Origin: Trueperaceae bacterium
GTDB taxonomy: Bacteria; Deinococcota; Deinococci; Deinococcales; Trueperaceae
Assembly (NCBI GenBank): GCA_040905465.1
Contig: JBBDRK010000052.1
Coordinates: forward strand, 1-64,000
DNA length: 64,000 bases
Direction of reading: 5' to 3'
Below the pieces are notes generated by a model that saw only the letters and a list, made by a program, of their open reading frames with translations, made no database searches and was not told the origin of the DNA. Positions 164 to 53,936 of the stretch are shown in pieces. The position numbers were made by a program, and so were the translations under genes. How positions within the stretch are numbered: the stretch's first letter is position 1; each line of letters opens with the position of its first letter.

Positions 164-500
164 GGGCGTGCTCAGTCAAGATGATAATGCACTACGAGGG
201 CACAGTGCGAACTTTCCTAGATAATAATCTAGATGCTAACTGAGCGATCACTAAACTGCCGACTTAAACGGCAACTGCTAAGGGCCCAGCGAAACCCAAT
301 TCTTCCTCAGTTATCCGGTTGGACCGTAGCAATTGTTGCGCCAAAAACTCTTGCCGCACGGGATATCAACCAGCGACTTGCTAGGTCCCTTGAGTCATAC
401 GAGAAGAGTGCCTTCAACAACGGTGGAATACCAAATAGCCTTCATATTTTCCGCAGTAATTAGTTACATCTCCGCGTCTATCGATCGTTCCCTTGAAACC

Positions 501-535
501 AAATAAACAAGGGCACCTCCGATATGGAGATGCCC
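501..535 (-). terminator. Intrinsic terminator of the small peptide gene
   Basis: Minus strand GGGCATCTCC-ATATC-GGAGGTGCCC (10-bp stem, one G-U) followed by TTGTTTATTT, 20 nt after the stop at 556. Confidence 0.8.
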
Positions 536-555
536 CCAAAGTAGTGTGTGTGTCC

Positions 556-657
556 TTAACGCGTAGAGGCCGGCGCGACAGCACTGACAATTGCCGGCAG
601 GCTCATAAGGGCGACAAAGACAACCGAGTAAAAAATGCGCTTTCCAGTATTTTTCAT
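556..657 (-). CDS. 33-aa secreted pro-peptide candidate MKNTGKRIFYSVVFVALMSLPAIVSAVAPASTR
   Basis: ATG 657, TAA 556; RBS AGAGGA 7 nt upstream; basic N-region, hydrophobic core, VSA cleavage-like site, 7-aa tail; own terminator and promoter. Confidence 0.8.
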   Translation of the reverse strand: MKNTGKRIFYSVVFVALMSLPAIVSAVAPASTR

Positions 658-887
658 TTTCCCATCCTCTTCTAGCTCACAGAGCTGAATTCACTCGCCA
701 ATTTTGGCAAGCGCCGCAACAACTCCCAACCGTTGCGGATACTTCAGGCGATTGCCTGAATCGTCTCTGGAAGCGCTGTTGAACCGAAAAGGTCACAACA
801 GAACTCCCACTCCGCCGGACCATCGTCACGGCCAAAATCTCCCAATCTTGGCCGCAACAGCAACTGTGCCGTTAAGCACTGTTACTT
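658..887 (-). promoter_or_regulatory. Long structured 5' leader of the peptide mRNA with three UGGGA(G)-loop hairpins
   Basis: Inverted repeats at about 859-886, 829-854, 791-821, 743-760, 714-738, 697-708 and 674-686; G-U pairs favour the minus strand for the GGGA-loop stems. Transcription start inferred from the promoter at 894-922. Confidence 0.55.
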
Positions 888-893
888 GGATAA

Positions 894-922
894 AAGCTAT
901 CATGCGGTACTCATCGGGTCAA
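894..922 (-). promoter_or_regulatory. Sigma70-type promoter facing the peptide gene
   Basis: TTGACC (922-917), 17-nt spacer ending in TGA, TAGCTT (899-894); extended -10. Confidence 0.65.
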
Positions 923-1058: not shown

Positions 1059-2738
1059 ATGAAACGTGACGACACAGAACTATTGGTACAGGCTCAAGCT
1101 TTGGTGCATGAAAAGTATGCCGGCATTGAGTTGGAAAGTGCGATTCAAGGTTGGGCCTACCTCGGTGAGTTCGATATTGGAATTCAGGTGTACCAATCAC
1201 TAACACTGCCCACGGCAAAGGACGATAGGTGGCTTGGCGTGTGTCTGTTTCAGCGATTCGAAGACATGCTTGCACAGGAAGCGTTTTTTCGAGCCCTGTC
1301 AAAGGGCGAGGAAGCAGCACGTGTCAACCTCGCACACTTACTACGGTTTCTTGAAAGATCAGAAGAAGCGGTGGCAGAACTAGTACGGGTAGACGTCAAC
1401 AAGTTAAGTCCTTACGATAAGGTTTTATACTTACGAGTCAGCAGCCTACATGAAGAGACTAACGGGAATATTAGGAAAGCGGTAGAATTCGCCGAGCGCG
1501 CCTGGAGCCAAGTACAAGGAATTCCTGAGTTTCAGCTTCTAGCTCCCTCTGTTCTGGGCCAACTGGGTATTCTCTATGGTCGCATGGGGGAAGCACGACG
1601 TGCACTTTGGTTCCTCGAGCATGGCATTGAGCTTACGACTGGCCTAGAACAGCAAAAGGTCAAGTTGAGGCGCGCCACCCTATTAATAAATCTCGGCAGG
1701 GCGAGCGACGCCGAAGCAGAACTTAGTTCTCTTGGCGGTCTGCCGCAGGCCCTCGAACTGGAGAGGGATTTTCTATTCGGGGAGCTTCGTTGGTCAATGG
1801 GCCGCCTGACAGAGGCAAGCAGCCGCTTCTCGTCCGTCGTCGAGACAGCTTCCAAGCTATCGACCGGCGCCGATGAGTTTTCGGCTCGTGTAGCGCTAGT
1901 AGCAATTTGTAGCCATACAAGTCAGTTTCAAGAGGCGCGGGAAAACCTTCAGAAAGCGCGCATCTTGATTAGCGACCGAACAGACGTACTCGTGCACCGC
2001 TTCCGCGAAATATTGCTCCATGTACGCAGCGAACAGTATGGTTTAATAGAGGCAGCTTCAGAACTCGAAATGCTGGCGGTTGAATTCCGTCGCCTCGGAA
2101 CACTGCAGGAAGAGGCATCCGTGAGGGTGCATCTTGCCGAAACGTACAGATTGGCAGGAGATGGTCGTCTTCGATCTGAGCTAGCAGCTGTTCGGAATAT
2201 ATGTAGTTTCGTGCATAACAGTCTATTTCTGGCGCGCGAATGGTTCCTTTTACCGGAACTTTCGACTATCGCCGCCGACGCAGAACCGCTACTCTTCTCA
2301 GAGCCGCAGGGTCAACTCAGAGTCGTGACAATTGGCTCGGAGATGCTTCTACTTAACGGCCATCCAGTCAAACCACCGTTGCGGCGAACAGTTGAGATGC
2401 TTTCCTACTTCATAGAATTTCAGCAAGTTACGTTGTCGCGCTTGACTGAAGACCTGTTTCCCTCGAAGAAAGCAAGAACCGCGCGTTCGTACTTTCACCA
2501 ATTTCGTGTTCAGCTTAGAAGGCATGTGAGTGGTGTGGAAATTGCTTTCGACAATCGCAGGAACATATACGAACTACGAAGTGACATAGAGATTCTTTGG
2601 GACGTCGATGCCATACGGCGAGGCGATATTCCGGCGGTAAGCGGCCACTTCTTACCATCTGCGGACGCAGCTTGGGTGAAGAGATTAGACTCTGAAGTCC
2701 AATCATTATTGCGACAGCAACTTATTCCGTCAGCTTAG
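1059..2738 (+). CDS. Transcriptional regulator with N-terminal TPR-like helical repeats and C-terminal SARP/OmpR-type winged helix
   Basis: 559 aa; TPR-like repeats (e.g. LGQLGILYGRMGEARRALWFLEHGIEL). The C-terminal segment LRVVTIGS..LNG..VEMLSYF..LFP..ARSYFHQFRVQLRR..WDV aligns by eye with the DNA-binding domain of the response regulator at 52631-53689. Confidence 0.8.
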   Translation: MKRDDTELLVQAQALVHEKYAGIELESAIQGWAYLGEFDIGIQVYQSLTLPTAKDDRWLGVCLFQRFEDMLAQEAFFRALSKGEEAARVNLAHLLRFLERSEEAVAELVRVDVNKLSPYDKVLYLRVSSLHEETNGNIRKAVEFAERAWSQVQGIPEFQLLAPSVLGQLGILYGRMGEARRALWFLEHGIELTTGLEQQKVKLRRATLLINLGRASDAEAELSSLGGLPQALELERDFLFGELRWSMGRLTEASSRFSSVVETASKLSTGADEFSARVALVAICSHTSQFQEARENLQKARILISDRTDVLVHRFREILLHVRSEQYGLIEAASELEMLAVEFRRLGTLQEEASVRVHLAETYRLAGDGRLRSELAAVRNICSFVHNSLFLAREWFLLPELSTIAADAEPLLFSEPQGQLRVVTIGSEMLLLNGHPVKPPLRRTVEMLSYFIEFQQVTLSRLTEDLFPSKKARTARSYFHQFRVQLRRHVSGVEIAFDNRRNIYELRSDIEILWDVDAIRRGDIPAVSGHFLPSADAAWVKRLDSEVQSLLRQQLIPSA

Positions 2739-2996: not shown

Positions 2997-3229
2997 GCCC
3001 AAACATTGTGAGCAAATGCTGGACGGCCAGCTGCCGCTCGACTCGGCGGTAGCAACTCATGTGAATCGCGTCTCCCACGTGGCAGGCGGGCTCCGCGAGC
3101 GGCTACGCTCTCAGCTCGAACCGAGGCTGCTGGTCGCGCTTTTGTCGTCCAGTACAAGTTGCGCTGAGACGCGATTTTATGATTAAATGGTGCGTTGCCA
3201 AGAATCTAGGCAAGGAGGAATCCCCTTTC

Positions 3230-5377
3230 ATGGATGAAAAGTTAAACCAGGCCGCGGAGAACCCTGCCACGGCCACCGACCAAGCCCCGGAGGAAAGCTC
3301 GAGCCAGGCCCCGACTGCGGCTGTTGAGCAGGGTGCAGACACCGCAGCGGCGAACGCCCCGACATCTGATTCAACCTCCCAAGACGACGTCGCCAGCCAA
3401 GAGCCCGAGCAGAGCTCCGAAATGCCGGAAATGACGATGGAAGACGTGCTGGCAGCCAGCGATGAGCAGCTCGCCCGCAAGCCGGTCCATCGCGGCATGA
3501 TCACCAACGGAACGGTAATCATGCTCTCTCAAGACGGGATCATCGTCGACGTCGGTGCCAAGATCGAAGGCCTACTTCCCTACAACCAGCTTTTCGAGTT
3601 CGAGACCAACGTCACGGAAGCGGCCAAGTACTTCAAGCCGGGCGACGAGATCCAGGTCTACGTCATTCGGTCCGACATCCCCAACAACACCATCGTACTC
3701 TCGAAGAAGCGTGCCGATCAGGAACGTGCCTGGAACCTGTTGCAGGAAATCTTCGAGAAGCAGAAGCCGGTGGAAGTGGAGATCGTCGAGAAGGTACGAG
3801 GCGGCCTCGTAGCGAACCTCGGAATCCGGGCGTTCCTGCCTGCCAGCCAAGCGGACGTGCGTCGGGTCAACGACCTCAGCCCGTTCGTCGGCAAGCGCCT
3901 GAAAGTCAAGATCATCGAGCTCAACCGCAAGCGTAACCGCGTCATCATTTCGCGCCGGGCGATCCTCGAAGACGAAATCGCCGGTCAGAAGGAAGAAACG
4001 CTCAAGCAGCTCGAGCCGGGACTGCGTCTCGACGGCGAGGTCGTGGAGATCACCGACTTCGGCGCCTTCGTGAACCTCGGCGGCATAGACGGACTGGTGC
4101 ACCGTAGCGAGCTGAGCCACGGCCGCTTCAATCACCCGCGCGAAGTCATAAACGTGGGCGACAAGGTCCGGGTCGAAGTCCTCGACATGGACCTCGAGCG
4201 TGAGCGCATCAACCTCTCCATGAAGAAGCTTGTGCCGAACCCGTGGGAGAACGTTCTCGCGAACTACCACATCGGCAACAAGATCGCCGGCAAGGTCACC
4301 AACCTCACGCCGTTCGGCGCCTTCGTCGAGATCGAACCCGGCCTCGAGGGCCTGATCCACGTCAGTGAGATGAGCTGGACCAAGCGGGTCCGCCATCCCA
4401 AGGAAGTGGTCACAGAGGGCGATGAGGTCGAGGCGTTGATCCTCAAGATCGACACCAATCAGCAGCGCATCTCGCTCGGACTCCGCCAGACCCAGCCCGA
4501 TCCGTGGAGCAGCCTGCCGGATCGCTTCCCGCCGGGCACCGAGGTTACCGGACCGATCACCGGCATCACCGAATTCGGTGTGTTCATGGAGATCGAAGAG
4601 GGAATCGAAGGCCTGGTGCACATCAGCGAGCTGGCCCACGAGCATATCGAGGACATCAGCGAGCACTTCACCAAGGGCGACGAGGTTACCGCGGTGATCC
4701 TCAACATCGACCCGGTGGAGCAGCGTGCCAGCCTCTCGCGCAAGCGCCTTCTCCCCTTCTCGGCCGGCGAGTTCGACGGCACCGTTCCATCCGGCGCTCC
4801 GGCCGCTCGCGGCGGGGCCCGCCGCGGTGGACGACGTGGCGGACGGCGCAGCCAGGGTATCGACTACGATTACTCCTACGCCGCTACCGACGCTTCCGCC
4901 AAGACGACTACCAAACTCGGTGACGTCTACGCCGACCTCTTCGCCCAGTTCGGTCTGACCGAGGGCAAGGAAGAGCAAGCAGAAGGTGCGGAAGCCGAAG
5001 CGGCCGACACCGCCGAGGCGGAGGGCCAGGAGGCCCAGGCCGAAACCGGAGCTGCAGAGGCTGCTCCCGAGGCCGAAGCCGGCGAACAGCCACAGGCCGA
5101 TGCAGAGGCCGATGTAGAGGCCGAGGCGACCGAAGCCGACGCTCCTGAAGCGAAGGCAGCCGAGCCCAAGAAGCCGGCGAAGAAGCCTGCGGCCAAGGCC
5201 GAGGAGAGCGCTCCCGAAGACGAGGAGAACGCTATCGACGCCGCGGAGGCGGCGGCGCTCCTTACCGCCGCGTTCCGCGAGGGCAAGCGGCCCGTGAAGC
5301 CGCAGGATGCCGACGAAGCGTCCGAGGCCGAGCAGGCCGAAAAGCAGGAAAAGCAGGAAGAGAAGAGCAACGCCTAG
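3230..5377 (+). CDS. rpsA: 30S ribosomal protein S1
   Basis: Tandem S1 domains (FGAFV..G..GL(I/V)H.SE); strong RBS AGGAGG before ATG 3230, so the start is moved from 3179; acidic low-complexity extensions at both ends. Confidence 0.97.
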
Positions 5378-52630: not shown

Positions 52631-53689
52631 CTAGCTTTCGGCCATCAGCGCCGCGAAGCGGCCGCGCGCTTTCTCGGCCTTGCCCGGCTCGCCGCGAGAT
52701 TCCCAGGTCCGCGCCAGACCGTTCCAGGCGGTCTCGCTGAACGGCTCGTGTTCGGTCATCGACTGGAAGTAGCGGGTGGCTGCCTCGAGGTCGCTCCGTT
52801 TCTGCGCCAGCTCGGCCGCGGCCTGAAGCAGCGACAGGTGCTCCGCGTGGAGTGCCTGTCGGGCCTCCTCGACCCAGGCCGAATCGAATCCGATGAGAAA
52901 GTGGCCTCCGTAGAGGCGCACGGCCTGCTCGAATCCGTCCGGCGAGGCCGAGTCCCGGGCCTTGCGGCCCGCGGCACGGTACTGGTCGACGTCGTAGTCG
53001 ATGCGGAACTCCCGTCGCAGGTAGTAGCGCCGGTTCGCCGACTCCACCAGCTCGCCGCCCATGACCTTGCGCAGCCGATAGAGCGTCGTATGGAACGAGC
53101 TCGAGGCCTTCGCTTCGGTCTTTCCCGGCCACAGCGCTTCCGCTACTTCGAAGGTAGTGACCCCGTTGCGATGCTCCAGCATGTAGAACAGCAGCTCGAG
53201 CGCCTTCAACGAGTCCCAGTCGAGACGCTTGCCGTTTCGCTCGATGAACGGGTGGCCCAGGCCGCGAGCGCGAACCGTACCCTCCAGCGGGTGACGAAGC
53301 TCCTCGATTCGCTGCAGGCGGATGCGAACGGCGTCCACCAGCTCCTGGCGTTCGAACGGCTTGGTGAGGTAGTCGTCGGCCCCGAGCGTCATCCCCTGGC
53401 GCACGTAGCTTCGGTCCTCCATCGCCGTCAGGAACAAAAACGGGATGGCGTGGAGCTCCGGGTAGGTGCGAACCCTCTTGTAGAACTCGAAACCGTCGAG
53501 ACCGGGCATAGAGACGTCGGAGACTATAACGTCGGGTCGCAGGCCCTCTTCCAGTTCAGCCGCCGCGTCACGAGGATCGTCGAACGACAGCACATTGAAG
53601 CCCGCGGCCACCAGAGTAAGCTCGATGAGCTTTAGGACCGCCGGATCATCGTCAACCACAAGGACGAGCGTGGCCGTCATACGAGTCAT
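52631..53689 (-). CDS. Response regulator (REC + SARP-type winged helix + BTAD-like)
   Basis: VVDDD, SDVSMPGLDG, FLTA, DYLTKPF; ALWP..FHTTLYRLR; EPFSE; start 53689 or 53680. Confidence 0.9.
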   Translation of the reverse strand: MTRMTATLVLVVDDDPAVLKLIELTLVAAGFNVLSFDDPRDAAAELEEGLRPDVIVSDVSMPGLDGFEFYKRVRTYPELHAIPFLFLTAMEDRSYVRQGMTLGADDYLTKPFERQELVDAVRIRLQRIEELRHPLEGTVRARGLGHPFIERNGKRLDWDSLKALELLFYMLEHRNGVTTFEVAEALWPGKTEAKASSSFHTTLYRLRKVMGGELVESANRRYYLRREFRIDYDVDQYRAAGRKARDSASPDGFEQAVRLYGGHFLIGFDSAWVEEARQALHAEHLSLLQAAAELAQKRSDLEAATRYFQSMTEHEPFSETAWNGLARTWESRGEPGKAEKARGRFAALMAES

Positions 53690-53741
53690 GCTAACGCGGC
53701 CCCGAACGCGTGAATATGAACTTCCCGTCCTGACGCTGCGC

Positions 53742-53936
53742 TCAGCTCCAGCTCTCGGTACGCTGGAATCGCACGAGCGCGCTGAACTCGAGCCCACCGC
53801 TCGCCAACTGGGTGGTGGCGAACTCGACGTCGACGATCAGGTCGCCTCGATCGAGCGAATCGACGAACGCGTTCATACGCTGCTCGAAGAGCTCGACCTC
53901 GTTCGCGGTCACGAGCTTGAAACGGACACTTTCCAT
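53742..53936 (-). CDS. Small hypothetical protein, Cse60/DUF2758-like pattern
   Basis: 64 aa with RBS AAGGGAG; FEQRMNAFV..L..IVDVEF..FSALV pattern. Confidence 0.65.
   Translation of the reverse strand: MESVRFKLVTANEVELFEQRMNAFVDSLDRGDLIVDVEFATTQLASGGLEFSALVRFQRTESWS

Follow-up and report, generated by a model that had tools for sequence, protein, structure and literature searches.

In the available excerpts of three papers, the RRNPP(A) systems (Rap-Phr, NprR-NprX, PlcR-PapR, AimR-AimP, and Rgg-SHP) are treated as a trait of the Firmicutes/Bacillota and their elements (PMC10075063, PMC9765709, PMC12700828), and the large RRNPP detector survey, as excerpted, scanned only Firmicutes and viruses (PMC10075063). 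For Deinococcus, the excerpted part of a review covers only N-acyl homoserine lactone (AHL) and autoinducer-2 (AI-2) systems under its quorum-sensing heading (PMC6300522). Here, we describe a 33-codon open reading frame (ORF) at positions 556 to 657 of the minus strand, divergently transcribed from the gene of a 559-residue regulator (1059..2738, plus strand), in the first 64 kb (hereafter, the window) of contig C52 of a Trueperaceae bacterium whose assembly comprises 3.53 Mb and is 95% complete. We consider it somewhat probable that the two genes encode a pheromone/receptor pair that resembles the RRNPP systems but has another receptor architecture and lies in a phylum that is new for such systems. 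Searches of the literature, supplements aside, on peptide signalling in Deinococcus or Truepera and on SARP-TPR proteins gave no description of such a pair.

As in the RRNPP(A) systems, a small gene for a predicted exported propeptide is adjacent to the regulator gene, and a short C-terminal part of its product is the putative signal. The receptor would be cytoplasmic, with a modelled TPR-type superhelix that superposes best on RapJ-PhrC, the peptide residues diversify between lineages, and several paralogous peptide-receptor pairs are found in some genomes. The locus differs from these systems in that the DNA-binding domain, as modelled, sits at the C-terminus and has a SARP/OmpR-type winged-helix fold, instead of an N-terminal XRE-type helix-turn-helix (HTH) or the three-helix bundle of Rap, and in that the sequence similarity of the receptor to RRNPP proteins is not significant. 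Moreover, the host belongs to the Deinococcota, whereas the known systems belong to the Firmicutes and mobile elements, and the locus lies in the chromosomal core next to rpsA and not on a mobile element. Unlike in RRNPP(A) systems, no second protease need be invoked, since the cargo would directly follow the signal-peptidase site. Large SARPs, AfsR among them, have TPR repeats as well, according to the part of the source available (PMC10936776). The C-terminal domain model of the regulator matches the DNA-binding fold of the SARPs AfsR and EmbR, but the order is reversed here (TPR first, winged HTH last, whereas SARPs begin with an OmpR-type winged helix and then a BTAD), the Pfam domains BTAD and NB-ARC are absent, and a secreted-peptide gene is paired with the regulator gene. 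A further system that can be compared with this locus is RNAIII/hld of Staphylococcus aureus, a regulatory RNA that belongs to a peptide quorum-sensing circuit and also codes for a small peptide. By analogy, the locus described here may also place a short ORF inside a longer, highly structured RNA at a peptide-signalling locus, although no sequence or Rfam relationship was found and the loops are G-rich (GGGA) and not C-rich.

The pre-peptide gene consists of 33 codons and a stop codon (556-558), begins with an ATG that has no upstream in-frame start, and is preceded by the Shine-Dalgarno sequence AGAGGA (665..670, minus strand), 7 nt 5' of the ATG; a GGAGGATGGGA-like block is kept at this position in relatives. 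Its translation (MKNTGKR, a hydrophobic stretch, VSA, and a VAPASTR tail) is exactly the one quoted in the original prediction, which had been made from the window alone. The gene is single-copy in its own genome and lies 556 nt from the end of the contig. The exact sequence of the peptide is absent from a collection of 15 billion proteins searched by exact look-up, and standard gene calling thus appears to miss this 33-codon gene; in the same look-up, the peptide of one relative was present, and the receptor was found in NCBI with no name attached to it. A search of the ESM Atlas with the peptide gave no usable match.

The peptide used as a query matched (E < 0.01) in 9 of 41 related genomes, its own included, and each match was located about 0.4-0.5 kb divergently upstream of an orthologue of the regulator gene. 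Eleven relatives have a strong regulator orthologue, and direct reading of their loci showed the small ORF in 10 of them, the exception being G019. A scan with one genome per species yielded 42 loci, of which seven are cut at a contig end, and 34 of the 35 loci with upstream DNA carry a divergent small ORF upstream of the regulator gene; its length is 33 codons in 30 loci, 32 and 35 codons in one locus each, and 43 codons in two. This pairing lies in conserved chromosomal synteny across more than 20 genera. For codon analysis, 34 coding sequences were used (that of the window, those of 32 loci after exclusion of the two 43-codon variants, and L023); 32 of them, no two of which are identical, have 33 codons. 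The residues M1, K2, N3, G5, I8, F9, A26, and R33 are invariant in these 32 sequences, while their synonymous codons vary (all four for G5 and for A26, five for R33), and translation ends at codon 34 in every sequence (TAA in 18, TAG in 6, and TGA in 8). Invariant residues with varied synonymous codons and a fixed stop indicate purifying selection at the protein level, and, as judged from these sequences, neither a chance ORF nor a purely RNA-level constraint would give such a pattern. The ORF is thus almost certainly a real, translated gene.

Codons 1-26 (580..657, minus strand) encode a predicted Sec-type signal peptide with the n-region MKNTGKR, an h-region with a Pro at -6, and the c-region V-S-A, and cleavage is predicted after Ala26. 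The classical requirement of signal peptidase I is the -3/-1 rule. Among the 32 sequences, position -1 (residue 26) is Ala in all, position -3 (residue 24) is V in 21, A in 8, and G in 3, position -2 (residue 25) varies freely (S, V, T, A, L, M, or F), and Pro21 (-6) is present in 27; Cys is lacking, and the basic residues are at positions 2, 6, and 7 (K2, K6, R7). With its basic n-region, its hydrophobic h-region, residues at -3 and -1 that are small and uncharged, and no lipobox Cys, the sequence corresponds to the Sec/signal peptidase I layout, from which we infer export by Sec and a cut by signal peptidase I after Ala26. The genome contains three signal peptidase I (S26 peptidase) genes, and six of the eight peptide-binding proteins examined by eye in this genome begin with a similar n-h-AxA layout.

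The predicted cargo is the heptapeptide VAPASTR (codons 27-33; 559..579, minus strand), of a family with the pattern G-x-x-x-S-Q-R. The tail is exactly seven residues long in 30 of 34 loci, the C-terminal Arg33 is invariant in the 33-codon class, and most relatives show G-x-x-x-S-Q-R, the tail of the nearest relative being IAPASTR. Twenty-one distinct tails were counted among 29 loci, with hypervariable core positions 28-30. When the 406 pairs of these 29 loci were compared, a set in which kin are not independent so that it describes a pattern and is not a test, the identity of the tail core was 1.0 for receptors that are more than 85% identical, 0.49 at 70-85%, and 0.10-0.14 below 70%, while the identity of the signal region held at 0.54-0.66; all eight pairs whose receptors are more than 0.85 identical have an identical tail. 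In the two 43-codon variants (L062:2319-2447(-) and L064:2330-2458(-)), a hexapeptide ending in Arg is followed by a 6-residue spacer and by the same hexapeptide again, the copies being identical within each precursor and different between the two species. Duplication of the unit that follows the signal region fits a released cargo and not a membrane anchor. The original prediction had proposed a signal peptide plus heptapeptide, as in pheromone precursors, to be checked by a tBLASTn search of related genomes, which should show a variable tail behind a conserved signal region, and precisely this was found. The proposed layout was borne out by the -3/-1 rule in 32 of 32 sequences and by the fixed seven-residue tail with its variable core, and the pheromone reading gained further ground, as far as sequences can tell, from a partner that the prediction had not named, the divergent gene of a presumably cytoplasmic TPR regulator, paired with the peptide gene in almost every locus.

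The 559-residue product of this divergent gene, the proposed peptide receptor, is predicted to consist of a TPR superhelix (residues 1-408), a winged HTH (residues 419-520), and a C-terminal helix. A Pfam search gave TPR_12 alone (E = 7.8e-9) and detected no N-terminal HTH, BTAD, or NB-ARC domain. An AlphaFold model built from 34 orthologues (mean pLDDT 91.8, pTM 0.72) has 23 helices over residues 1-408; residues 419-520 form three short strands followed by three helices and a beta-hairpin, and a last helix comes after them. We take this order of strands and helices at 419-520 to be the OmpR-like winged-helix arrangement. In a Foldseek search against the PDB, the best geometry among the matches listed was obtained with RapJ-PhrC (4gyo_B, TMt 0.77, TMq 0.51, root-mean-square deviation 3.8 over 360 columns), while the leading E-values belonged to TPR proteins of APC/C and to LGN, which superpose poorly (TMt 0.29-0.48, root-mean-square deviation 9-19). 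A model of the last 150 residues (pLDDT 92.6) matched AfsR on its promoter (8hvr_I, E = 9e-5, TMq 0.71), 8k60 and EmbR (TMq 0.68), and then DNA-binding domains of OmpR/PhoB-type response regulators, and a sequence search of the PDB with these 150 residues gave no meaningful match. No membrane segment was found in the regulator (maximum KD19 1.11). Taken together, the TPR model, the match of the C-terminal winged HTH, and the lack of a membrane segment point to a cytoplasmic Rap-like TPR sensor with a SARP-type DNA-binding domain. Elsewhere in the window, the gene at 52631-53797 (minus strand) encodes a receiver, a SARP-type winged HTH, and a BTAD, aligns to residues 417-523 of the regulator, and is the sole other protein of the window with its DNA-binding domain. 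In three loci (L066:2983-4643, L067:2992-4660, and L090), the receptor gene appears as two overlapping ORFs, owing to a frameshift or an assembly error, and the peptide ORF is intact.

The pairing extends beyond the orthologues. In a sample of 301 Deinococcota genomes, receptor homologues (cut-off E 1e-15) were found in 112, namely in 52/102, 45/112, 0/14, 5/62, and 9/10 genomes of families f1, f2, f3, f4, and f5, respectively. For distant paralogues (about 21-30% identity), a divergent upstream small ORF with a signal-peptide layout was present in 13 of 17 loci, and in 11 of 20 loci of a further set examined with the same crude filter; the controls with this filter gave 1 of 20 on the other strand and two ORFs in the entire 64-kb window, both strands included. 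The distant tails are 8-25 residues long, Gly/Pro-rich, and follow an AxA site, often with D-P after the Ala, and they form subfamilies, one of which ends with C-x-x-C. In L091, L094, L095, and L096 (f5 genomes G036, G040, G028, and G032), the predicted exported tails end with P-P-x-x-C-x-x-C, which suggests a disulfide-closed C-terminal ring. In sequence terms, the divergent pairing across paralogues is how cognate cassettes of peptide and receptor typically appear in genomes.

In the mechanism that we propose, Sec would export the 33-residue product, signal peptidase I would cut it after Ala26, and the C-terminal heptapeptide (VAPASTR here, G-x-x-x-S-Q-R in most relatives) would be freed and then re-imported by an oligopeptide ABC importer. 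There it would bind within the TPR superhelix of the cytoplasmic regulator that the divergent gene encodes, and the C-terminal SARP-type winged helix of this regulator would alter transcription, probably that of the peptide gene too, and the three variable residues of the tail core would set the recognition between receptor and peptide. Import capacity is provided by 31 SBP_bac_5 matches in the genome. As an observation in its own right, this is an unusually large peptide-uptake repertoire for a 3.5-Mb genome. Direct repeats that contain TCAG, 11-12 or 22 nt apart, were found 60-95 nt 5' of the peptide ATG in 6 of 13 distant cassettes. Such a direct-repeat layout is known as the binding layout of SARP domains. 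Single 6-mer repeats are expected by chance in an estimated one-fifth of such stretches, so that only multi-copy cases weigh, and these upstream repeats suggest autoinduction. Up to three copies were seen in L035, L089, L092, L093, L030, and L031, where they make a candidate, SARP-box-like operator.

The predicted transcript of the peptide gene has a 5' leader of about 230 nt (658..887, minus strand), its 5' end being placed from a promoter-like site at 894..922 (minus strand), which consists of TTGACC (922-917), a 17-nt spacer, and TAGCTT (899-894). A consensus promoter scan of the window did not list this site, whose -10 is weak. In relatives, the promoter-like site in front of the first leader hairpin reads TTGAnn-N17-TAnnnT, and in an alignment of 28 sequences the A of the second hexamer is nearly invariant and its last T invariant. 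Directly past the stop codon lies an intrinsic terminator (500..538, minus strand) with a 13-bp stem (hairpin 538..508) followed by a T-run, and hairpins past the peptide stop are also present in many relatives. The predicted RNA of 413 nt (912-500) folds with a z-score of -6.08. Within the spacer of 400 nt between the peptide and regulator genes, the leader contains three hairpins with GGGA tetraloops on the minus strand (824-859 with loop 840-843, 796-817 with loop 805-808, and 714-738 with GGGA at 724-727).

The related leaders L037-L075 contain two to four hairpins with U-GGGA-G loops (U.G closing) and covarying stems. In the 270 nt before the peptide ATG, 77 GGGA-loop hairpins (stem of at least 4 bp) were counted over 33 loci, while dinucleotide shuffles gave 2.8 +/- 1.6 with a maximum of 8 in 100. 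The leader alignment comprised 28 of the 33 leaders, those of L045, L050, L057, L063, and L072, which have another layout, being excluded. The two aligned hairpins were 93.5% paired with 34 double-change cells, a result equalled by none of 500 shuffles, and slid controls reached at most 64%. Structure-supporting G.U pairs numbered 60 on the sense strand, compared with four A.C pairs, which would be G.U on the opposite strand. Among the 40 GGGA hairpins (stem of at least 5 bp) of the whole 3.53-Mb genome, the sole pair within 160 nt on one strand is that of this leader. No GGGA hairpins were found upstream of the 13 distant paralogue peptides. Rfam gave nothing near the locus at gathering thresholds, and nothing on 480-1100 even at E up to 10. 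One possibility is that the leader hairpins regulate translation of the peptide, another that the transcript doubles as a regulatory RNA. CsrA was considered as a reader of the GGA-containing loops and rejected, as PF02599 was not found in the 95%-complete genome. The idea that the 9-mer GGTTGGGAG is repeated genome-wide was rejected too, with 29 copies compared with 18 in a reversed control and no enrichment. In L065 (2300-3010), five copies of the leader motif CTCCCA were seen, and only a 12-codon ORF follows a Shine-Dalgarno-like site.

A complex prediction for the receptor with the whole precursor counts weakly in favour of the pair. It gave a median of 0.52 (runs of 0.58, 0.11, and 0.52), with 0.02 for the best of three controls, a contact agreement of at least 42%, and a partner pLDDT of at least 35; among the reference pairs, the mark was passed by 58 of the 80 solved complexes and by 2 of the 110 mismatches, and passes at 0.60 or under comprised just 7 of the 80 solved complexes together with both passing mismatches. 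The verdict of the tool was weak support for a complex, with the uncleaved precursor used and no interface reported. Several results weigh against a pheromone/receptor pair, the low standing of this score in the calibration among them. At the sequence level, a search of PDB sequences with a profile built from 10 orthologues gave generic TPR proteins as best matches, RapH (3q15_A) reaching only E 0.06, so that no link between the regulator and RRNPP receptors appears in sequence, and TPR superhelices can converge. The tail of the window, VAPASTR, lacks both G27 and the S-Q of the family, and in L065 the receptor and the leader motifs are kept while the signal-peptide ORF is absent. The uncharged stretch I8-A26 (19 residues, KD19 2.21) could remain as a membrane anchor, and the n-region MKNTGKRIF is conserved far beyond usual signal peptides, which is not accounted for by export alone. 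An operator search in Trueperaceae, for exact 6-mers 10-12 or 21-23 nt apart upstream of the promoter, found none in 27 of 33 loci, and the six remaining loci showed scattered single 6-mer repeats without a common motif. Lastly, the Deinococcota have an outer envelope layer, which a 7-mer would have to cross to act between cells.

These points leave room for other explanations, of which those that retain a peptide product come closest. The heptapeptide could be exported and released and yet act elsewhere, on a membrane sensor, as an antimicrobial on other cells, or in the envelope, with the TPR-winged HTH neighbour being merely its transcription factor. We judge this rather unlikely. All the support for export and for a released cargo would apply equally to such a peptide, direct binding to the neighbour has weak computational support, and the tandem repeats in 6 of the 13 distant cassettes would fit a regulator of the peptide promoter whatever its ligand. 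However, the near-obligate 1:1 pairing across deep paralogues, the match of the modelled receptor fold to peptide-bound Rap, and the shift of the tail core as the receptor diverges are predicted by a cognate ligand-receptor pair, and the locus has no conserved histidine kinase or processing/export gene, its neighbours being rpsA and the HD-GYP-like and RlmL-like genes. We give less credence to an uncleaved, single-pass membrane micro-protein (N-in, with seven residues outside) that would modulate a membrane partner or tether the TPR regulator through MKNTGKRIF. The strict -3/-1 positions, the free -2, and the Pro at -6 are needed for a cleavage site and not for an anchor, and neither the fixed tail length with its invariant C-terminal Arg nor the duplicated post-signal unit of L062 and L064 fits an anchor, even though the 19-residue uncharged stretch is sufficiently hydrophobic (KD19 2.21), the nine N-terminal residues are unusually invariant, and the complex prediction, made with the whole precursor, could reflect the N-terminus or the hydrophobic helix. 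In addition, the 8-25-residue Gly/Pro-rich tails that follow AxA in distant paralogues are typical of exported propeptides.

Two further alternatives concern the RNA. That the structured transcript of about 390 nt acts as a regulatory RNA through its GGGA-loop hairpins, the small ORF being a secondary or dispensable passenger, would agree with the conservation and covariation of the leader hairpins, with a hairpin cluster that is unique in the genome, and with L065, which retains the motifs without the ORF. We nevertheless hold it to be very improbable, as the ORF is clearly under protein-level selection, and the distant cassettes keep the peptide ORF without the hairpins, which makes the peptide, and not the leader, the constant partner of the receptor. 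The original prediction had also offered, as its alternative, a small membrane peptide or a type I toxin held in check by an antisense RNA. A short hydrophobic peptide behind a long structured 5' leader has the appearance of such a membrane-damaging toxin, whose translation an antisense RNA would block. The toxin alternative gained no support from the comparison and is very improbable: the gene is single-copy and lies with a regulator gene in conserved chromosomal synteny, its product has a conserved signal-peptidase-type site, it is the sense strand that carries the conserved structure (60 G.U pairs vs 4 A.C), no Rfam match was obtained even at E up to 10, and no antisense promoter or RNA was seen in the sequence. 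The pheromone/receptor pair remains the reading that we favour for this locus.

The neighbourhood of the pair was also inspected. In 14 of 35 related loci, the peptide gene is immediately followed, on its own strand, by an HD_5 (HD-GYP-like) gene (for example, L038:1176-2309(-)), which may be an output of the system, through cyclic-di-GMP turnover. The HD_5 gene is not in the window, since the contig ends there. The stretch at 293-448 (plus strand) matches only the last 53 or so residues of the RlmL-like methyltransferase of the nearest relative (38% identity, E 2.5e-8), in which the methyltransferase gene converges on the peptide gene. The contig ends without the remainder of the RlmL-like gene, contig C81 has a complete copy, and 293-448, to judge from its sequence, probably represents a gene remnant. 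The gene of ribosomal protein S1 (3179-5377, plus strand) encodes an unusually long product of 732 residues with acidic low-complexity extensions at both ends; in 16 related loci, it is found 3' of the receptor gene.

A broader proposal can be made for the cassettes as a whole, namely that they form a phylum-wide, hitherto undescribed family of Deinococcota pheromone cassettes, each with a secreted mini-propeptide and a Rap-like TPR sensor fused to a SARP winged helix, the first RRNPP-like intracellular peptide sensing outside the Firmicutes, and that in Trueperaceae the pheromone mRNA doubles as a structured riboregulator. We put this forward as a speculation that is probably too far-reaching. 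In it, the array of GGGA hairpins would titrate or recruit some factor, and a single autoinduced transcript would deliver both the signal and the riboregulator, in analogy with RNAIII. The 33-codon gene also marks a blind spot of annotation. If the proposal is true, either the logic of TPR peptide signalling arose more than once or it is far older than thought, and the radiation- and desiccation-tolerant Deinococcota would have a peptide language beside their known AHL and AI-2 systems.

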